Notes under the pieces: generated by a model
Database searches by the model: none
What the model saw: the letters and a program-made list of their open reading frames with translations, nothing else
Told to the model about the DNA's origin: nothing
Translations under genes and position numbers: made by a program
Source of the DNA: a virus
Lineage: Duplodnaviria; Heunggongvirae; Uroviricota; Caudoviricetes
Length of the DNA stretch: 55,602 bases
Virus record (IMG/VR): IMGVR_UViG_2923286960_000003
Location: 1-55,602 of that record
Direction: 5' to 3' (one strand)
Part shown: piece by piece, positions 14,004 to 55,602 of the stretch
Numbering within the stretch: the stretch's first letter is position 1
Layout: every line of letters starts with the position of its first letter

Positions 14004-14344
14004 CGACTTTTACCAGAGAGCAGTTAATAGCTCACGCAGAGGAGACTATTGAAGCACAGAGACTGTGCATACCGGGCACAATCGACCATGACATCATCCG
14101 CACATATAAGATGGATATTGCTGTTCTGGAAATCGCACTGGTATCGCTGGCAGCAGAGCCAGCCGGTAAATTGCATGAATACAAACCAGTGGGATATCAG
14201 CGTCTGGTCGATGAGTTAACCATGCTGGTAAAGCAGTTAACCTGGCAACTGAGGAAAGCGAAGCCAGACTGCAAATTACCGGATAAGGCGATGAGTTATC
14301 TGGAGCGGAACGGACTGATAAGCGTGGAGGATATTTTACGATGA
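14000..14344 (+). CDS. hypothetical protein
   Basis: 114 aa; ATGA overlap with upstream gene. Confidence 0.45.
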
Positions 14345-21280: not shown

Positions 21281-21356
21281 GGCCCTTTAGCTCAGTGGTG
21301 AGAGCGAGCGACTCATAATCGCCAGGTCGCTGGTTCAAATCCAGCAAGGGCCACCA
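21281..21356 (+). tRNA. tRNA with CAT anticodon (Met or Ile2/lysidine type)
   Basis: hand-folded cloverleaf: acceptor GGCCCTT/AAGGGCC, D-stem GCTC/GAGC, anticodon loop CTCATAA, T-stem GCTGG/CCAGC, encoded CCA. Confidence 0.8.
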
Positions 21357-21363
21357 TCACATA

Positions 21364-21440
21364 CCGCCATTAGCTCATCGGGATAGAGCGCCAGCCTTCG
21401 AAGCTGGCTGCGCGGGGTTCAAGTCCCCGATGGCGGTCCA
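21364..21440 (+). tRNA. tRNA-Arg (anticodon TCG by hand fold)
   Basis: acceptor CCGCCAT/ATGGCGG, D-arm TAGCTC...GAGC, anticodon loop CTTCGAA, T-stem CGGGG/CCCCG, CCA; C1-G72 and U73 are unusual. Confidence 0.65.
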
Positions 21441-21453
21441 TTATCTGTATCCT

Positions 21454-44738: not shown

Positions 44739-47700
44739 ATGGGCAAAGGTGGCGGCAAGGCGCACACACCGCGTGAGGCGAAAGACAATCTCAAATCCAC
44801 GCAGATGATGAGCGTGATTGATGCGATTGGTGAGGGACCGATAGAAGGCCCGGTGAAAGGCCTGCAGAGTATTCTGGTGAACAAAACCCCGCTGACGGAC
44901 ACGGACGGTAATCCCGTGATACACGGTGTGACGGCGGTCTGGCGCGCCGGGGAGCAGGAGCAGACACCACCGGAAGGCTTTGAGTCCTCCGGAGCTGAAA
45001 CCGGACTGGGCGTGGAAGTGACGAAGGCAAAACCGGTGACGCGCACCATTACGTCCGCGAACATTGACCGCCTGCGGGTTACCTTCGGGGTGCAGTCACT
45101 GGTGCAGACCACGTCAAAGGGCGACCGTAATCCTTCCTCTGTCCGGATTCTGATTCAGTTACAGCGTAATGGCCGCTGGGTGACGGAAAAGGACGTCACC
45201 ATTAACGGCAAGACCACCTCACAGTTCCTGGCCTCGGTGATTCTGGATAATCTGCCTCCCCGGCCCTTTAACATCCGGATGGTCAGGGAGACGGCGGACA
45301 GCACCACGGACCAGCTGCAGAATAAGACGCTGTGGTCGTCATACACCGAAATCATCGATGTGAAACAGTGCTACCCGAACACGGCCATTGTGGGGCTGCA
45401 GGTGGATGCGGAGCAGTTCGGCGGCCAGCAGATGACGGTGAACTACCATATCCGCGGTCGCATCATCCAGGTGCCGTCAAACTATGACCCGGAAAAACGC
45501 ACGTACAGTGGTATCTGGGACGGCAGTCTGAAACCGGCATACAGCAACAACCCGGCCTGGTGCCTGTGGGACATGCTGACTCACCCGCGCTACGGCATGG
45601 GAAAACGTCTGGGGGCGGCGGATGTGGACAAGTGGGCGCTGTATGCCATCGGGCAGTACTGCGACCAGACGGTCCCGGATGGTTTCGGGGGGACAGAGCC
45701 GCGGATGACCTTTAATGCGTACCTGGCACAACAGCGTAAGGCGTGGGACGTTCTCAGTGATTTCTGCTCTGCGATGCGCTGTATGCCGGTATGGAACGGT
45801 CAGACGCTGACGTTCGTTCAGGACCGCCCGTCGGATGTGGTGTGGCCGTACACCAACAGCGATGTGGTGGTGGATGATAACGGCGTGGGATTCCGCTACA
45901 GCTTCAGTGCCCTGAAGGACCGGCACACGGCGGTGGAGGTGAATTACACCGACCCGCAGAACGGCTGGCAGACCTCCACGGAACTGGTGGAAGACCCGGA
46001 AGCCATACTGCGCTACGGACGCAACCTGCTGAAGATGGACGCGTTCGGCTGTACCAGCCGCGGTCAGGCCCACCGTGCCGGACTGTGGGTGATAAAGACC
46101 GAACTGCTGGAAACGCAGACGGTGGATTTCACGCTCGGGTCTCAGGGGCTGCGGCACACACCCGGTGACATCATTGAAATCTGTGATAACGACTATACCG
46201 GGACCCTGACCGGCGGACGTGTCCTGTCCATTGATGCTGCCACCCGCACCCTGACGCTGGACCGTGAAGTGACACTTCCGGAGACCGGTGCCGCCACGGT
46301 GAACCTGATTAACGGCAGCGGTAAGCCGGTGAGTGTGGGCATCACCGAACACCCCGCGCCGGACCGGATACAGGTCAGTACCCTGCCTGATGGTGTGGAG
46401 ACATACGGGGTGTGGGGACTCTCCCTGCCGTCACTGCGCCGTCGCCTGTTCCGCTGTGTCTCCGTCCGGGAAAACACGGACGGCACCTTTGCCATCACGG
46501 CGGTGCAGCACGTACCGGAAAAAGAAGCCATCGTGGATAACGGTGCCCGCTTTGAGCCGCAGTCAGGTTCCCTGAACAGCGTCATCCCACCGGCAGTGCA
46601 GCACCTGACGGTGGAGGTGAGCGCAGCTGACGGCCAGTATCTGGCGCAGGCGAAATGGGACACGCCGCGGGTGGTGAAGGGTGTGCGCTTCAGTCTGCGC
46701 CTGACCAGTGGTAAGGGAACGGATGCCAGACTGGTGACCACCGCCATCACCGCAGACACGGAGCACCGTTTCAGCGGCCTGCCGCTCGGGGAATACACCC
46801 TGACGGTGCGGGCGATAAACAGCTATGGCCAGCAGGGTGAACCTGCCACCACCACCTTCCGGATTGCCGCACCGGCAGCACCGTCGCGGATTGAGCTGAC
46901 GCCGGGCTATTTTCAGATAACCGCCACGCCGCATCTTGCCGTTTATGACCCGACGGTACAGTTTGAGTTCTGGTTCTCGGAAAAGCGGATTGCGGATATC
47001 AGGCAGGTTGAAACCGCAGCCCGCTATCTTGGCTCGGCGCTGTACTGGATAGCTGCCAGTATCAATATCAAGCCGGGCCATGATTATTACTTTTATATCC
47101 GCAGTGTGAATACTGTTGGCAAATCGGCATTCGTGGAGGCTGTCGGTCGGGCGAGCGATGATGCGGAAGGTTACCTGGATTTTTTCAAAGGAGAGATAGG
47201 GAAAACCCATCTGGCTCAGGAGCTGTGGACGCAGATTGATAACGATCAGCTTGCGCCTGACCTGGCTGAAATCAGGACGTCCATTACGGATGTCAGCAAT
47301 GAAATCACGCAGACTGTCAATAAGAAACTGGAAGACCAGAGTGCGGCAATCCAGCAGATACAGAAGGTTCAGGTTGATACAAATAATAACCTGAACAGCA
47401 TGTGGGCTGTGAAGCTGCAGCAGATGCAGGACGGACGCCTTTATATCGCGGGTATTGGTGCCGGTATTGAGAATACGCCAGCAGGAATGCAGAGTCAGGT
47501 GCTGCTGGCGGCAGACAGGATTGCGATGATTAATCCTGCGAATGGCAACACAAAGCCGATGTTTGTTGGTCAGGGCGATCAGATATTCATGAACGACGTG
47601 TTCCTGAAACGCCTGACGGCTCCCACCATTACCAGCGGCGGTAATCCTCCGGCATTTTCCCTGACACCGGACGGGCGGCTGACGGCGAAAAATGCCGATA

Positions 47701-48212
47701 TCAGCGGTAACGTGAATGCGAACTCCGGGACGCTCAACAACGTCACGATTAACGAGAACTGTCGGGTTCTGGGAAAACTGTCCGCCAACCAGATTGAAGG
47801 CGATCTCGTTAAAACAGTGGGCAAAGCTTTCCCCCGGGACTCCCGTGCACCGGAGCGGTGGCCATCAGGGACCATTACCGTCAGGGTTTATGACGATCAG
47901 CCGTTTGACCGGCAAATTGTTATTCCGGCGGTGGCATTCAGTGGCGCTAAGCATGAGAGAGAGCATACTGATATTTACTCCTCATGCCGTCTGATAGTGC
48001 GGAAAAACGGTGCTGAAATTTATAACCGTACCGCGCTGGATAATACGCTGATTTACAGTGGTGTTATTGATATGCCTGCCGGTCACGGTCACATGACGCT
48101 GGAGTTTTCGGTGTTAGCATGGCTGGTGAATAACTGGTATCCCACAGCAAGCATCAGCGATTTGCTGGTTGTGGTGATGAAGAAAGCCACCGCAGGCATC
48201 AGTATCAGCTGA
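44739..48212 (+). CDS. host specificity protein J-like (central tail fiber)
   Basis: 1157 aa, lambda J size and position. Confidence 0.9.
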
Positions 48213-48279: not shown

Positions 48280-48879
48280 ATGCGTAAAGTTTGTGCAGCC
48301 ATTTTGTCCGCAGCCATCTGTCTGTCCGTATCCGGTGCGCCTGCATGGGCGTCTGAACATCAGTCCACACTGAGCGCGGGGTATCTTCATGCCCGTACGA
48401 ACGCTCCCGGCAGCGATAATCTGAACGGGATTAACGTGAAATACCGTTATGAGTTTACGGACGCGCTGGGGCTGATTACGTCCTTCAGTTATGCCAATGC
48501 TGAGGATGAGCAAAAAACGCACTACAGCGATACCCGCTGGCATGAAGATTCCGTGCGTAACCGCTGGTTCAGCGTGATGGCGGGGCCGTCTGTGCGCGTG
48601 AATGAATGGTTCAGCGCGTATGTGATGGCGGGTATGGCTTACAGCCGTGTGTCGACTTTCTCCGGGGATTATCTCCGCGTAACTGACAACAAGGGGAAAA
48701 CGCACGACGTGCTGACCGGAAGTGATGACGGTCGCCACAGCAACACGTCTCTGGCGTGGGGAGCTGGCGTGCAGTTTAACCCGACCGAATCCGTGACCAT
48801 TGACCTTGCTTATGAAGGTTCCGGTAGTGGCGACTGGCGAACGGATGCATTTATTGTTGGTATCGGATACCGTTTCTGA
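48280..48879 (+). CDS. lom: Lom-like outer membrane protein (Ail/OmpX family)
   Basis: signal peptide; ends in aromatic residue (GYRF); position after J. Confidence 0.85.
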   Translation: MRKVCAAILSAAICLSVSGAPAWASEHQSTLSAGYLHARTNAPGSDNLNGINVKYRYEFTDALGLITSFSYANAEDEQKTHYSDTRWHEDSVRNRWFSVMAGPSVRVNEWFSAYVMAGMAYSRVSTFSGDYLRVTDNKGKTHDVLTGSDDGRHSNTSLAWGAGVQFNPTESVTIDLAYEGSGSGDWRTDAFIVGIGYRF

Positions 48880-49030: not shown

Positions 49031-51835
49031 ATGACAGTAAAAATTTCTGGCGTGCTTAAAGATGGCACAGGAAAACCAGTACAGAACTGCACCATTGTGC
49101 TGAAGGCCAGACGAACCAGCAGCACGGTGGTGGTGAACACGGTGGCCTCTGAAAATCCGGATGAAGCCGGACGTTACAGCATGGATGTTGAGCATGGTCA
49201 GTACAGCGTCACCCTGCTGGTTGAAGGTTTTCCGCCTTCACATGCCGGGACCATTACCGTCTATGAAGGTTCCAGACCAGGTACGCTGAATGATTTTCTC
49301 GGTGCCATGACGGAGGATGATGTCCGACCGGAGGCACTGCGCCGTTTTGAAGTGATGGTGGAAGAGGTGGCGCGTAACGCGTCCGCAGTGGCACAGAACA
49401 CGGCAGCCGCGAAGAAGTCAGCCGGCGATGCCAGCACATCAGCCCGTGAGGCGGCAACCCATGCGACTGATGCTGCAGGCTCAGCACGTGCAGCCAGCAC
49501 GTCAGCCGGACAGTCCGCGACGTCGGCTCAGGAGGCTTTTTCCAGCGCAGGAACGGCATCAGCAAAAGCCTCTGAGGCATCAAAAAGTGCTGCTGCTGCA
49601 GAGTCATCAAAAAGCGCGGCAGCTACCAGTGCCAGTGCCGCGAAAACGTCAGAAACGAATGCCGCAGCATCACAAAAATCGGCAGCCACTTCTGCATCCA
49701 CAGCGACCACGAAGGCGTCAGAAGCTGCCACCTCGGCACGGGGTGCGGCGGCCTCAAAAGAGGCAGCGAAATCTTCAGAAACGAATGCATCATCAAGTGC
49801 CAGTAGTGCAGCTTCCTCGGCAACGGCGGCAGGAAATTCCGCGAAGGCGGCAAAAACGTCCGAGACGAACGCTAAGTCTTCTGAAACAGCAGCGGGACAG
49901 AGCGCCTCAGCTGCGGCAGGTTCAAAAACAGCGGCTGCATTATCTGCCAGTGCCGCGTCAACAAGTGCCGGGCAGGCCTCAGCCAGTGCCACCGCCGCCG
50001 GAAAATCGGCAGAAAGCGCCGCATCATCCGCTTCAACAGCCACAACGAAGGCTGGCAAAGCCACTGAGCAAGCCACTGCAGCAGCGAGGTCTGCTTCTGC
50101 AGCAAAAACCTCTGAAACAAATGCAAAGACTTCAGCAGACAATGCTGCTTCCTCTAAGGCGGCAGCCGCATCGTCAGCCAGTTCAGCGGCGTCATCGGCA
50201 TCATCGGCGTCTGCTTCAAAAGATGAGGCGACCAGACAGGCGTCAGCAGCGAAAGGTAGTGCCACGACAGCAACAACGAAAGCATCAGAGGCGGCAGGCA
50301 GTGCGACGGCTGCATCTCAGAGCAAAGTTGCTGCTGAATCCGCGGCAACGCGCGCCGAGACAGCAGCAAAACGGGCAGAGGATATTGCATCCGCCGTGGC
50401 GCTGGAGGATGCGAGCACGACGAAAAAGGGGATAGTACAGCTCAGCAGTGCGACCAACAGCACTTCCGAGTCACTGGCGGCAACGCCAAAAGCGGTTAAG
50501 GCGGTAATGGGTGAAACGAACAAGAAAGCGCCCTTAAATAGTCCTGCACTGACCGGAACGCCAACAACACCAACTGCGCGACAGGGAACGAATAATACCC
50601 AAATCGCAAGCACGGCTTTCGTTATGGCTGCGATTGCCGCCCTTGTAGATTCGTCACCTGATGCACTGAACACGCTGAACGAGCTGGCTGCGGCGCTGGG
50701 CAACGACCCGAATTTTGCGACCACCATGACTAACGCGCTTGCGGGTAAGCAACCGAAAGATGCCACCCTGACGGCGCTGGCCGGACTTACTACTGCGGCA
50801 GGCAAGTTTCCGTATTTTACGGGGAATGATGTCGCCAGCCTGGCAACCCTGACAAAAGTCGGGCGGGATATTCTTGCGAAATCGACCGTTGCTGCCGTTA
50901 TCGAATACCTCGGTTTACGAGAACTCGGCACAAGAGGGGAGAAAATACCGTTACTCAGTACAGCGAATACCTGGACTAATCGACAAACATTCAGCGGTGG
51001 CCTTTCTGGTGAACTATCCGGCAATGCTTCTACAGCTGCAAAATTAAAAACTGCCAGGAAAATAAGCAATGTGGCTTTTGATGGTTCCTCCGATATCACA
51101 TTAAAAGCAAGTCATGTTGGTGCGTTTGCCTTAGGGAAAACAGGAAGCACCGTTGCGAATGATAAAGCAGTTGGATGGAACTGGAGTAGCGGAGCCTATA
51201 ACGCAACTATTAGTGGTGCATCAACGTTAATTATTCATTTTTATATGGGAGAAGGAAGTTGTCCTGCAGCTCAGTTTCGGATTAATTATAAAAATGGCGG
51301 TATTTTTTATCGTTCAGCCCGTGATGGTTATGGTTTTGAAGCCGACTGGTCCGAATTTTACACCACCACCAGAAAACCTTCAGCAGGAGATGTTGGTGCA
51401 CTGCCGTTATCTGGTGGTCAACTGAATGGTGCACTGGGTATCGGAACATCCAGTGCTCTTGGCGGTAATTCGATTGTATTGGGTGATAATGACACGGGCT
51501 TTAAACAAAATGGCGATGGTAATCTGGATGTTTATGCTAATAACGTCCATGTTATGCGCTTTGTCTCCGGCGGCATTCAAAGTAATAAAACCATAAATAT
51601 TACAGGGCGTGTTAACCCCTCGGATTACGGTAACTTTGATTCCCGCTATGTGAGAGATGTCAGACTTGGCACACGAGTTGTTCAGACCATGAAGAAAGGC
51701 GTGATGTATGAAAAATCAGGCCATGTAATCACGGGGCTTGGTATTATCGGTGAAGTCGATGGTGATGATCCGGCAGTATTCAGACCAATACAAAAGTTAA
51801 TTAACGGAACATGGTATAACGTATCGCAGGTATAA
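49031..51835 (+). CDS. side tail fiber protein with Ala/Ser-rich repetitive shaft and switchable C-terminus
   Basis: 934 aa; low-complexity shaft with KTSETNA repeats; C-terminal region lies inside invertible segment. Confidence 0.85.
50898..50923. other. invertase crossover site, left (gix/cix-like)
   Basis: TTATCGAATACCTCGGTTTACGAGAA; inverted partner at 53862-53887; resembles remembered Gin gix site. Confidence 0.6.
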
Positions 51836-51837
51836 TC

Positions 51838-52371
51838 ATGCAGCATTTAAAAAACATTGTCGCAGGTAATCCAAAAACCGTTGAACAATACCAGCTAACA
51901 AAGAATTTTGATGTTATCTGGTTATGGTCCGAAGATGGAAAAAATTGGTATGAGGAATTAAAAAACTTTCAGGAGGATACAATAAAACTGGCTTACACAG
52001 TTGAGGGAATAATTATTGCTATAGACAAGGATGTATCAGCAATTAATCCAGAAGGTTTAAGTGTCGTTGAGTTGCCTGATATTACAGCAAATCGCCGGGC
52101 TGATATTTCGGGCAACTGGATGTTCAAAGATGGTGCGGTGATAAAGCGAACTTATACCGAGGAAGAGCAAAGGCAACAAGCGGAAAATGAAAAGCAGAGC
52201 CTGCTGCAGCTCGTCAGGGATAAAACCCAGCTGTGGGACTCTCAGCTACGGCTGGGCATCATTTCCGATGAGAATAAACAAAAATTAACCGAGTGGATGC
52301 TCTATGCGCAGAAGGTTGAATCCACAGACACCTCCAGACTGCCAGTAACGTTTCCAGAACAACCAGAATGA
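51838..52371 (+). CDS. tail fiber assembly protein
   Basis: 177 aa; N-terminal MQHLKNI...[13 protein letters not shown] pattern; directly after stf. Confidence 0.8.
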
Positions 52372-52399
52372 GAGAAGGCCCGCTATCGGGCCTTAATTT

Positions 52400-52927
52400 T
52401 TATTCAGGCTTTTGTGGCCATTCAGGATTTGCCGTATCCACACGGCTGACCAGAACACTGTAGCGTTCCCATGCTTCCAGTCGTGTGCGTTCCTCGTCTG
52501 TTGCCATATTCAGCCTGACAGCGCGTTCCAGCGGCTGGATGACTGATTCAGCTTCGGAAAGCAATGCGGCCTTTTGTGATTCGGCCTGTTGTTGCTGTTC
52601 GTCAGCCGTATAAATCCGTTTAACCACAGCTCCGTCCTTAAACATCCACTTACCGGAATCATCGGTCCGACGATTGGCCGTTATATCGGGAACCTCGACG
52701 ACGCTAAAACCTTCGGGATTAAGCGTGGAGGCATCTCTGGTGATGGCGACAATAATATTATTTGCATCGTAAACAATCTTTATGGTGTCTGGCTGAAAGT
52801 TTTTCACTTCCTCATACCAGTTTTTTCCGTCCTCAGAGTAAAGCCAGATAACTCCGTGTTTCTTTGTTAACTGATACTGTTCCAGTGTTTTAGCATTACC
52901 CGCTTTTATGTTCTTTAAGTGCATCAT
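52400..52927 (-). CDS. alternative tail fiber assembly protein
   Basis: 175 aa paralog of the plus-strand assembly protein on the opposite strand inside the invertible segment. Confidence 0.8.
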
Positions 52928-52928
52928 A

Positions 52929-53861
52929 TTAAACGCTCGCTACATTATACCAGGTGCCATTTATATACTTTTGAACGGGTCTGTAATAAACGCCCGCTAT
53001 ATTATCGGCAGAGTTAGACCCTGTATCCTGAACATTAATACCAGACAATACATGACCTGAAGGGCACTGGAAATTCCATGTTTGCCAGTTGTTCACTCCA
53101 TAATATTGCTGTGAACCAAGTCGAACATCTTTCACATAACGGGAATCAAAGTTACCGTAATCCGAGGGGTTAACACGCCCTGTAATATTTATGGTTTTAT
53201 TACTTTGAATGCCGCCGGAGACAAAGCGCATAACATGGACGTTATTAGCATAAACATCCAGATTACCATCGCCATTTTGTTTAAAGCCCGTGTCATTATC
53301 ACCCAATACAATCGAATTACCGCCAAGAGCACTGGATGTTCCGATACCCAGTGCACCATTCAGTTGACCACCAGATAACGGCAGTGCACCAACATCTCCT
53401 GCTGAAGGTTTTCTGGTGGTGGTGTAAAATTCGGACCAGTCGGCTTCAAAACCATAACCATCACGGGCTGAACGATAAAAAATACCGCCATTTTTATAAT
53501 TAATCCGAAACTGAGCTGCAGGACAACTTCCTTCTCCCATATAAAAATGAATAATTAACGTTGATGCACCACTAATAGTTGCGTTATAGGCTCCGCTACT
53601 CCAGTTCCATCCAACTGCTTTATCATTCGCAACGGTGCTTCCTGTTTTCCCTAAGGCAAACGCACCAACATGACTTGCTTTTAATGTGATATCGGAGGAA
53701 CCATCAAAAGCCACATTGCTTATTTTCCTGGCAGTTTTTAATTTTGCAGCTGTAGAAGCATTGCCGGATAGTTCACCAGAAAGGCCACTGCTGAATGTTT
53801 GTCGATTAGTCCAGGTATTCGCTGTACTGAGTAACGGTATTTTCTCCCCTCTTGTGCCGAG
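52929..53861 (-). CDS. alternative side tail fiber C-terminal segment (expressed only after inversion)
   Basis: reads in frame from crossover site; N-terminal part near-identical to stf 50924-51680, last ~60 aa differ. Confidence 0.7.
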
Positions 53862-53887
53862 TTCTCGTAAACCGAGGTTTTAGATAA
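53862..53887. other. invertase crossover site, right
   Basis: TTCTCGTAAACCGAGGTTTTAGATAA; its reverse complement matches the left site except the central 4-5 bp. Confidence 0.6.
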
Positions 53888-53940
53888 TGGCGGTTTCTGG
53901 CCTGCATGGCATGATTTGTGCTTTTGGACGGGAGATTCAG

Positions 53941-54124
53941 CGTGCTGATTGGCTATGTAAGGGTATCAACAAATGACCAGAATACAGATCTGCAACGAAA
54001 CGCTCTTGTTTGTGCAGGATATGAACAAATATTTGAAGATAAATTAAGCGGAACAAGGACAGGCCGACCTGGATTAAAACGTGCTTTAAAGCGCCTTCAA
54101 AAAGGTGACGCACTGGTTGTCTGA
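53941..54124 (+). pseudogene. Gin/Pin-family DNA invertase, decayed
   Basis: LIGYVRVSTNDQNTDLQRNALVCAGYEQIFEDKLSGTRTGRPGLKRALKRLQKGD matches invertase N-terminus; then in-frame TGA codons and loss of the remaining ~130 codons. Confidence 0.7.
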
Positions 54125-54322
54125 AAACTGGACTGACTGGGTCACTGTATGCGGCATCTTGTCGTGCTGGTGGTGGAAGCCTAGAAAAAGTATCGGGTGT
54201 TGCTGAACCGTGTTGATACATCAACTGCACCTGATATTGAGTGGCCTACGAACCCTGTCAGGGAGTAATCATTGGGATTATGCCGCAGCACGTCTTAAGC
54301 AAGAACGTGCTGCGGTTGGATG

Positions 54323-54979
54323 CTATTTTTTCCCTGAAGCGGAAAACATTACTACAGTACCTTGAACCTTGGTTTTAACATTCTCGAAATGCTCTGAGAG
54401 TATATGTGTTAAGCCTTCTTCGGAATCTTTTGTGTTTGAAAAGATGCCTTTCTGATTGTAAATGCGCATCAGTTTTTGACCGAAGCTATTGTGCACAACT
54501 CCATCGCCAAGAATTGTGGCTCCGTATAGAGTTCCATCGTCAGTTAAGGCCTGCGCCGCATTGCGTATTACACAGCTTTTTGTAGATATATTTCCAGGCA
54601 GGCAGTGAAGAAGGTAAAACATGGAAATGGAATCAAATTGACCATGTAACGCCGCGGGATAAGGTTCAAAAACATCATGGCTAATTTTATGTTTAATTCT
54701 TGATTCCCCAGCCCTTGTAGATGCCGCGTTCAGACTAGCTTCGTTCAAATCCATTAAAGATATCAGACTACTCTCAGGTACGTGAGTAAGGTAAAACCCA
54801 GTTCCAACACCAATATCCAGATGGTTGTTACCTACATGTTCCAGAAAGTGTGGAAGAAGGTGTTCCTTTGTAGGACATCCCCATGCAAGCCGATTTGATA
54901 CTCCCAAAACCCACCAGTCATAAAGCTTTAGGGTAAGTGGTGTGTAAATTTTAGCCCCATCATCTGTGTTTTTTTTCAT
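54323..54979 (-). CDS. class I SAM-dependent methyltransferase, AT-rich cargo gene
   Basis: motif I LDIGVGTGFY; RBS GGTGA; AT-rich relative to tail genes. Confidence 0.55.
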   Translation of the reverse strand: MKKNTDDGAKIYTPLTLKLYDWWVLGVSNRLAWGCPTKEHLLPHFLEHVGNNHLDIGVGTGFYLTHVPESSLISLMDLNEASLNAASTRAGESRIKHKISHDVFEPYPAALHGQFDSISMFYLLHCLPGNISTKSCVIRNAAQALTDDGTLYGATILGDGVVHNSFGQKLMRIYNQKGIFSNTKDSEEGLTHILSEHFENVKTKVQGTVVMFSASGKK

Positions 54980-55047
54980 TGATTTCACCATGTTATAGTT
55001 TTATTTGTGAATTAAATCAATTATGGCGATGAATTACAAGGGGTTAA

Positions 55048-55317
55048 ATGCTGCCGCAGCATAGCGATATTGAAATAGCCTGGTATGCTTCGATACAGCA
55101 GGAGCCGAATGGCTGGAAGACCGTCACCACACAGTTCTACATCCAGGAATTCAGTGAGTATATTGCGCCACTGCAGGATGCTGTAGATCTGGAAATCGCA
55201 ACGGAGGAAGAAAGATCGTTGCTGGAGGCATGGAATAAATATCGGGTATTGTTGAATCGTGTTGATACATCAACTGCACCTGATATTGAGTGGCCTGCAA
55301 ATCCTGTCAGGGAGTAA
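55048..55317 (+). pseudogene. tail fiber assembly protein C-terminal remnant
   Basis: C-terminus [25 protein letters not shown] is a tail-fiber-assembly-type tail; N-terminal half missing; same 3' fragment and hairpin at 54180-54320. Confidence 0.45.
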
Positions 55318-55602
55318 TCATTGGGATTATGCCGCAGACACGTCGTATGCAGGAACGTGCTGCGGTTAGTTTGTGAGCTTTCGATAGTGGTTGTTATTTT
55401 TGCCCTTATTTGTTCCGGAGGCCATGGTTCAATGGTCCGTCTGCCCCCTGTGGTGATGTCAGCAAAATCAGCCACTGCGCGAACCACAATAGCCCGGGAA
55501 GATACTGAAGATCACCAGGTAAAGCTGTCAGCGCAGAAACTGGAAGAACTGCTCGCATCAATGGTTAAGGATGAGGTTGATCGCAATGATGGGATTTATT
55601 GA

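Follow-up and report, generated by a model that had tools for sequence, protein, structure and literature searches.

The tail fibre switch and its crossover sites

The DNA analysed here, called the window throughout, is a 55,602-nucleotide (nt) stretch of a Caudoviricetes virus (IMG/VR record IMGVR_UViG_2923286960_000003). It is nearly an entire lambdoid prophage that lies in ompW and adjoins yciE-trpA in the annotation of the Escherichia coli chromosome LR217818. We focus on the 3' part of the side tail fibre gene stf, where two crossover sites bound a segment of 2.97 kb, and on the decayed serine invertase next to this segment. In the window, gpJ (44739-48212) is followed by Lom (48280-48879, PF06316), then by Stf (PF08400, E 2e-70) and Tfa (PF02413). 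With stf and tfa 3' of J and lom, this is a lambdoid side tail fibre module.

In its current state, stf (49031-51835, plus strand) is a continuous open reading frame (ORF) of 934 amino acids (aa) that matches PF08400 at residues 1-134 and is annotated as tail fibre in the records of strain NCTC86. It consists of a constant part (49031-50909) and the expressed variable C-terminus (50912-51835). The chaperone gene for this C-terminus is tfa (51838-52371, plus strand, 177 aa; PF02413, E 9.6e-34). The minus strand carries a second set, namely tfa' (52400-52927, 175 aa; PF02413, E 6.6e-38), the chaperone gene for the silent C-terminus, and the silent alternative fibre C-terminus itself, Sv' (52929-53875), which is without its own start codon and matches PF12604 (gp37_C). 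In the centre of the segment, where the two tfa genes converge, a terminator scan located a G+C-rich hairpin (52375-52394) followed by a T-run on the plus strand. The fold of 52365-52405, which holds this hairpin, has an energy of -19.2 kcal/mol and a z of -4.69. The hairpin could serve as a transcription terminator for either side.

The segment is bounded by two 26-bp crossover sites. The left site (50898-50923, plus strand) is TTATCGAATACC-TC-GGTTTACGAGAA and lies in frame within stf. The right site (53862-53887, minus strand) reads as reverse complement TTATCTAAAACC-TC-GGTTTACGAGAA. The two sites are inverted, share the central TC and differ by two mismatches, both in the outer half-site, where the right site also holds an in-frame TAA that closes the silent frame. 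With 12-bp half-sites around a 2-bp core, these are the sites of a Din-family (Gin/Cin/Pin/Hin) segment. The left site is identical at 26 of 26 positions to the left sites of a P2-like prophage in strain EC958 and of a lambdoid prophage in strain JJ1887. One base distinguishes the right site from that of the EC958 P2-like prophage.

We inverted 50910-53875 in silico, with crossover at the central TC. The reading frame is kept, and an intact 941-aa Stf with the other C-terminus results. Both states of the switch are coding, and each C-terminus comes with its own chaperone. An initial reading made from the letters of the window (the sequence-only reading) had proposed a Gin/Pin-type invertible tail fibre segment with inverted 26-bp sites at these positions, two alternative fibre C-termini and two oppositely oriented assembly genes. 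All of this is borne out by the sites with their shared TC core, the in-frame fibre swap and the paired tfa genes, in which the ORFs are intact and PF02413 is present in both copies.

The crossover sites lie at the outer ends of a long inverted repeat, whose left arm (50894-51674) and right arm (53111-53891) hold the first ~250 codons shared by both alternative C-termini. The repeat had been estimated at about 750 bp of near-identical sequence; it measures 781 nt with 10 mismatches (99% identity), which is far beyond chance. Of the mismatches, three belong to the outer half-site and six to the inner border; the remaining one, at 50996, is the single mismatch in the core of the repeat (50907-51645, 739 nt).

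The expressed fibre end is a chimera: it equals the silent fibre over its first ~250 residues, and its final ~55 are similar to the tip of the silent fibre in JJ1887, which is of another type (window 51646-51835 compared with 52929-53139). This points to cassette recombination that went on inside the segment and created the 781-nt inverted repeat.

Two further observations concern stf itself. In the NCTC86 records, the Prokaryotic Genome Annotation Pipeline (PGAP) splits the 934-aa ORF into a truncated pseudogene and a coding sequence named 'tail fiber protein'; the JJ1887 homologue is one coding sequence. The split appears to be an annotation artefact at the boundary of the constant and variable parts. 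The middle of the gene (window 49400-50320) consists of degenerate repeats rich in Ala, Ser and Thr, for example AAKTSETNA, and its direct-repeat families have spacings in multiples of three. This is a typical low-complexity fibre shaft.

Decay of the adjoining invertase

To the right of the segment lies the invertase stub (53942-54124, plus strand). It has a GTG start and 60 codons, keeps the VRVSTNDQ motif with the catalytic serine and ends with TGA at 54122-54124. We placed the start by alignment to the intact 199-aa invertase of the EC958 P2-like prophage. The sequence-only reading had set the gene at 53941-54124 with about 60 codons before in-frame TGA codons; the 60 codons and the in-frame stops hold, and the start moves by one base to 53942. 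Reading from a GTG further upstream (53918) gives 68 residues.

Alignment to intact invertases confirms the truncation. The stub is 94.8% identical at the nucleotide level to the EC958 gene over nt 1-191, and its stop at codon 61 is a TGG-to-TGA change relative to that gene. Past 54132, the sequence departs from the P2-like allele and follows an allele of the pinE/pinH type. Identity to K-12 pinE is 70.7% over nt 1-191 and 81.6% over nt 192-229, the latter including a 23-nt exact match, and window 54108-54169 is 85.5% identical to pinH over 62 nt. This degenerate continuation (54125-54174, plus strand) contains the second in-frame TGA (54134-54136); a third in-frame stop, TAG, stands at 54182-54184.

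The match to PF00239 covers only profile positions 2-69 of 145. The serine motif is present, and the remainder of the catalytic domain, the oligomerisation helix and the DNA-binding domain of a functional enzyme are missing. PGAP labels the stub 'recombinase family protein, incomplete'. An intact serine invertase of about 185-200 aa, with catalytic domain and helix-turn-helix, is not found next to the segment. Beyond about codon 78 (~54174), the invertase sequence is replaced altogether. Judged from what is left of the gene, the cis invertase is dead and beyond rescue by point reversion.

Two ways in which the gene might still be sound were considered and rejected. The first 192-230 nt of the stub, which span the first two stops, recur at an identity of at least 99% in 379 independent records, so the stops are real and sequencing error is ruled out as their source. 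Rescue by read-through or recoding is excluded because the sequence past about codon 78 is not invertase.

What follows the stub is foreign to it. The 3' end of another tfa gene, followed by a hairpin, is fused to the stub at 54171-54317 (plus strand) and is labelled by PGAP as 'tail fiber assembly protein, missing N-terminus'. The fragment begins at about 54171-54176 and is a ~90% identical direct repeat of 55220-55367. The hairpin at its 3' side (54282-54316) is strong, with -28.5 kcal/mol and a z of -4.65. The tfa 3' fragment and hairpin that had been assigned to 54125-54320 are both there, with the correction that invertase-like sequence runs on to about 54174. No obvious homology is seen at the joint of stub and tfa fragment (about 54171-54176), which suggests that the stub arose by illegitimate deletion or fusion.

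The remnant may have kept a regulatory element. A pattern scan found two G-N13-C 15-mers with A/T-rich centres in the stub, at 53963-53977 and 54012-54026, which together make a candidate Fis-dependent recombinational enhancer (53963-54026). The 15-mers are 49 bp apart from centre to centre, and the crossover point lies about 96 bp away from the centre of the first. [quoted passage not shown] By this analogy, we infer that the stub may still supply a Fis-dependent enhancer.

Switch orientation with and without a helper invertase

Window 50700-54400 finds full-length matches in five complete E. coli chromosomes, four at 99.6-100% identity and one at 99.3%. These are LR217818 and LT601384 (both NCTC86, the strain originally isolated by Escherich), OZ489144, CP117959 (strain B-2207) and OZ040035. 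All five NCTC86-type assemblies share the orientation of the window, and each matches in one piece. The form flipped in silico has no end-to-end match in any of the five. At this exact locus, we thus find one orientation in 5/5 assemblies and not both.

With the cis enzyme dead, we screened the same genomes for a helper. The probes were chosen to rank NCTC86-type genomes first, and matching places were counted per genome by blastn at the DNA level, which detects roughly 65-70% identity or better. A 230-nt stub probe in sensitive mode, with E up to 0.01, returned exactly two places in each of the five NCTC86-type genomes and two to five in the ST131 (sequence type 131) genomes listed. When the probe was extended by 270 nt of K-12 pinR, the count in the NCTC86-type genomes stayed at two; pinR stands for the divergent PinR/PinQ type, which also flips the e14 P segment. 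The second invertase-like place in NCTC86 lies between ypjCB and ypjA; it is a fragment of the pinH pseudogene, which PGAP describes as 'recombinase family protein, missing N- and C-terminus'. In this DNA-level screen, a trans-acting invertase of the Gin/Pin/Cin or PinR/PinQ type was found nowhere on the NCTC86-type chromosomes besides the pinH fragment. The prophages e14 (site by icd), Rac (by ttcA) and Qin (ydfJ-rspB) are absent from NCTC86, where their sites are empty, and the published genome-feature table lists no plasmids for this strain. The switch appears to be idle in the NCTC86-type host, with no helper detectable, and the absence of a helper agrees with the assemblies being of one orientation.

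A different picture emerges from a sister locus. A search with the stub alone retrieved 379 records, largely ST131, at 99-100% identity; in the sister records, the stub is identical at 100% over 192 nt and at 99.6% over 230 nt. The sister locus (JJ1887 1484393-1490470, present also in EC958) belongs to a lambdoid prophage at the same ompW site. The layout in JJ1887 is that of the window: stf, tfa, tfa', silent fibre end, stub, tfa fragment, methyltransferase and tfa fragment, with a right flank 99.7% identical over 1736 nt. The fibre ends differ. The expressed fibre of the sister locus is the silent fibre of the window, with 96.9% identity between Sv' and the fibre end that JJ1887 expresses. 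The silent fibre of the sister locus is of another type, and because of this its inverted repeat is only 32 nt long, compared to 781 nt in the window.

Orientation at the sister locus was determined with two right-junction probes of 1.6 kb, one being the native JJ1887 junction and the other the recombinant expected from crossover at the central TC, counting records with at least 80% coverage. The native junction is found in 142 records. The recombinant junction is found in 239, many of them matching at 100% over all 1601 nt; this count includes the five NCTC86-type genomes, which have that type of silent fibre. Together, the two counts (142 + 239 = 381) account for the 379 stub-bearing records. 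The junctions equal those of an in-silico crossover exactly at the central TC core. Individual ST131 genomes differ in orientation, with EC958 flipped and JJ1887 native, and with strain 4/0 native and strains 4/1-1 and 4/4 flipped.

In contrast to NCTC86-type genomes, which have neither, ST131 genomes have helper invertases and both orientations. EC958 and JJ1887 each carry a P2-like prophage with an invertible module flanked by an invertase gene; the EC958 copy of this gene was read and is intact (199 aa). As a control, the P2-like module with its cis invertase occurs in both orientations, in about 109 versus 103 records. Experimental observations point the same way. In a preprint on ST131 wound isolates, reversible tail fibre inversion in P88-like and BP-4795-like prophages is reported, with confirmation by polymerase chain reaction (PCR) and restriction digest from a single isolate (bioRxiv 10.1101/2022.05.07.487787). 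The same preprint ascribes a DNA invertase to the P88-like and phiE255-like prophages, the BP-4795-like prophage being unlisted (bioRxiv 10.1101/2022.05.07.487787). We infer that this BP-4795-like prophage is the sister locus. The flipping enzyme in ST131 is probably a co-resident Din-family invertase.

These data bear on the claim of the sequence-only reading that decay of the invertase leaves the host range probably locked. The part that stands is the apparent idleness in the NCTC86-type host, where 5/5 assemblies agree and no helper is detected. The general form of the claim does not stand, as the same stub accompanies both orientations in ST131 (142 versus 239 records). Since the same stub flanks both orientations where an intact invertase is present elsewhere in the genome, the comparison indicates that decay of the cis invertase alone does not lock the segment, and that the lock is conditional on the lack of a helper. 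The term host range is also too broad. In lambdoid phages, gpJ is the primary receptor-binding protein, and the side tail fibre serves as an accessory adhesin. The frozen trait is which side fibre is made, and not the host range overall.

A stricter form of the locked state would be a permanent fossil, in which inversion takes place nowhere and the two orientations in ST131 are old, inherited vertically and fixed before the invertase decayed. Such a history would fit the certain death of the cis invertase and the single orientation of the NCTC86-type locus. It is at odds with a stub and flank that are 100% identical in both orientation classes, and with the differences in orientation between EC958 and JJ1887 and between 4/0 and its counterparts 4/1-1 and 4/4. 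It is also at odds with the recovery of both orientations by PCR from one ST131 isolate (bioRxiv 10.1101/2022.05.07.487787). Also against it, both sites are kept, and both fibre ends and both chaperones are still intact ORFs. We regard this history as quite unlikely.

The inverted repeat itself offers a second way around the missing enzyme. Homologous exchange between inverted repeats of ~781-nt length is established, recA is present in the NCTC86 genome, and the repeat is long and near-perfect, with one mismatch in its 739-nt core. The NCTC86 segment might therefore still invert without any invertase, by RecA-dependent recombination. Against this stand the 5/5 assemblies in the same orientation, so that any such exchange would have to be rare. 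Homologous recombination is not the driver of flipping in ST131, because both orientations are seen there although the repeats are only 32 nt long. RecA-dependent inversion as the working mechanism of the NCTC86 switch seems improbable to us, if slightly less so than the fossil.

We conclude that the window very probably holds a non-autonomous ('orphan') Din-family invertible tail fibre cassette in the ompW lambdoid prophage, which is flipped in trans and is parked in NCTC86-type hosts. In the proposed mechanism, the constant part of stf ends at the 26-bp site, and inversion of the 2.97-kb segment would join it to one of two C-termini, each with its tfa. Because the serine invertase of the cassette itself is dead, flipping would require a Din-family enzyme that acts in trans and comes from another prophage, a phage or a plasmid. 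The cis elements are apparently kept: both sites have their TC cores, and the invertase gene retains its 5' part, the place where hin has its Fis-dependent enhancer. In NCTC86-type hosts, the segment would be parked with the 934-aa Stf as the expressed form, with rare RecA-mediated exchange across the 781-nt repeat as a possible exception. Given a helper invertase, the NCTC86 copy would presumably flip.

Several points weigh against this conclusion. The five assemblies probably come from no more than two or three independent strains, and 5 of 5 is weak when taken alone. The orientation in NCTC86 is known from assemblies, so a minority subpopulation of flipped segments is possible. The helper screen used N-terminal DNA probes, and a more divergent serine recombinase would escape it. 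For ST131, flipping and any particular helper invertase are linked by correlation. The prophage might no longer make particles. For the enhancer, the argument is one of position and pattern, with a spacing of 49 bp compared to 47 bp in hin.

The cassette might also be kept for the benefit of the host, with one alternative Stf made by the lysogen blocking adsorption of other phages and inversion being triggered by a helper invertase. There is precedent for this in e14, where PinQ-driven inversion of the P segment leads to StfE2, which blocks adsorption of T2 (PMC12529663), and it would agree with both fibre ends and both chaperones being intact despite the loss of the invertase. At this locus, however, no helper invertase was detected in the NCTC86-type host. 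The stf gene stands within the apparently complete late operon of a full-length prophage. The portal is an uninterrupted 861-aa ORF in the window (33317-35902); in LR217818, PGAP marks it as frameshifted. The window is free of insertion sequences (ISs) and has none at ~14081-14086, compared to LR217818, in which a 1.33-kb IS3-family insertion lies in the early region. By these two differences, the window is nearly identical to LR217818 but distinct from it. With stf in an apparently complete late operon of a prophage that has an intact portal ORF and no IS, ordinary use in the virion explains the conservation of the gene. By analogy with e14, a host function can be imagined, and we consider it very unlikely.

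Returning to the cassette as a switch operated in trans, there may be a reason for the survival of the stub. It is possible, and we put this forward tentatively, that the stub was retained since it carries the Fis enhancer, and that the cassette is a streamlined non-autonomous switch free-riding on the invertases of co-resident P2-like or Mu-like prophages. If true, a lambdoid phage could vary its side fibre only in polylysogens, and in hosts such as NCTC86 the choice would be frozen. One prophage would then depend on another, unrelated one, and the about 380 sequenced genomes with the same stub would allow this to be examined in the wild.

Knowledge of Din-family inversion, cross-complementation and the Fis-dependent enhancer goes back to the 1980s. 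A preprint already noted switching in the ST131 relative (bioRxiv 10.1101/2022.05.07.487787), and the gain here is one of interpretation rather than discovery. The locus would provide a natural example of an invertible fibre cassette that outlives its own recombinase. Phase variation of tail fibres can then depend on the whole prophage complement of a cell and not on a single prophage. For annotation, a pseudogenised invertase should not be equated with a locked switch, and predictions of host range or receptors for prophages of ST131, a pandemic clone, should count both fibre forms.

Known relatives and genomic setting

The whole module is related to the invertible tail fibre module of P2-like prophages common in ST131 (EC958 958387-962359 plus the invertase EC958_RS04620), with ~92% nucleotide identity over 81% of window 50700-54400. 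Further matches, each with an annotated invertase, are the P2-like Escherichia phages 503458 and 520873 and the Mu-like Shigella phage SfMu. The P2-like modules have the same order as the window, with fibre end, tfa, tfa', silent fibre end and invertase, and an identical left 26-bp site. They differ in that their invertase is intact (199 aa) and their fibre gene is that of a myovirus tail (P2 H position), compared to a lambdoid stf and a 60-codon stub in the window. From this comparison, the module in the window reads as a Gin/Pin-type cassette common to myoviruses that was grafted onto a lambdoid stf. Tail fibre mosaicism among such phages has long been known.

The best known switches of this kind are the G segment of Mu with gin and the C segment of P1 with cin. 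Both combine a constant fibre N-terminus, 26-bp inverted sites and alternative C-termini with cognate chaperones, and in both a Fis/enhancer-dependent serine invertase adjoins the segment. The inverted repeats of the P1 C segment are roughly 0.6 kb long. The logic is that of the window, but Mu G and P1 C are autonomous with an intact cis invertase, whereas the window needs an enzyme from elsewhere. The roles of Gin and Cin are summarised in PMC12529663 and PMC3575834.

The e14 P segment of K-12 likewise switches a fibre C-terminus, with two convergent tfa genes and an adjoining Pin invertase. It is shorter (1.8 kb), its pinE is intact, and e14 is a short cryptic element, in contrast to the full-length prophage in the window. 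The sole e14 site recovered by pattern search differs from the window site at 6/26 positions. Exchange of enzymes between such systems has been described: the e14 P segment is inverted by PinQ, PinR and PinE, the Salmonella H segment by Fin and the Mu G segment by PinE (PMC12529663).

The pinH gene of K-12 and NCTC86 is, like the stub, a decayed fragment of the Pin type, related to it by the 85.5% match given above. The annotation and the probe match of pinH fall short of the N-terminal part of the invertase, and no tail fibre genes are annotated beside it in K-12 or NCTC86. The stub of the window, in contrast, keeps the 5' part and has a complete switch alongside.

In the gene order of the prophage, the exonuclease and early genes are followed by those for terminase, capsid, portal and tail, and then by gpJ, lom and stf. 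For NCTC86, a region of 56,936 bp labelled 'bacteriophage lambda' has been tabulated at this place, with yciE and ompW on either side (PMC5382810). Beyond this entry for the yciE-ompW region, the NCTC86 genome paper and its supplements make no mention of invertases (PMC5382810). Genes for tRNA-Ile and tRNA-Arg are annotated at window 21283-21442, 3' of a DNA methyltransferase gene and 5' of the lysis region.

Outside the switch, the right flank continues with a class I S-adenosylmethionine-dependent methyltransferase gene, a moron (54323-54991, minus strand, 222 aa, with Pfam methyltransferase domains). It is followed by a second tfa C-terminal fragment (55048-55317, plus strand, 89 aa), which matches PF02413 at positions 75-130 of 131. 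The methyltransferase gene is flanked by the two ~90% identical direct copies of a tfa 3' end with hairpin (54171-54317 and 55220-55367). The block of tfa fragment, methyltransferase and tfa fragment has matches in thousands of E. coli genomes. In K-12, the match lies in the 577-kb region, presumably the DLP12 prophage. The block appears to be a widespread moron cassette that lambdoid prophages carry at their right end.

Two observations concern the NCTC86 chromosome at large. Compared to K-12, the gene order of LR217818 shows a large inversion (NZ_LR217818.1 1.22-1.26 Mb and 4.09-4.14 Mb), one end of which lies at the ribosomal RNA operon by clpB (the K-12 rrnG position); this could be a true rearrangement or reflect a choice made in assembly. 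In the roxA-phoQ interval, NCTC86 carries a small element with integrase, primase, capsid and head-decoration genes (NZ_LR217818.1 2424892-2435351), which looks like a phage satellite of the P4 or phage-inducible chromosomal island (PICI) kind.

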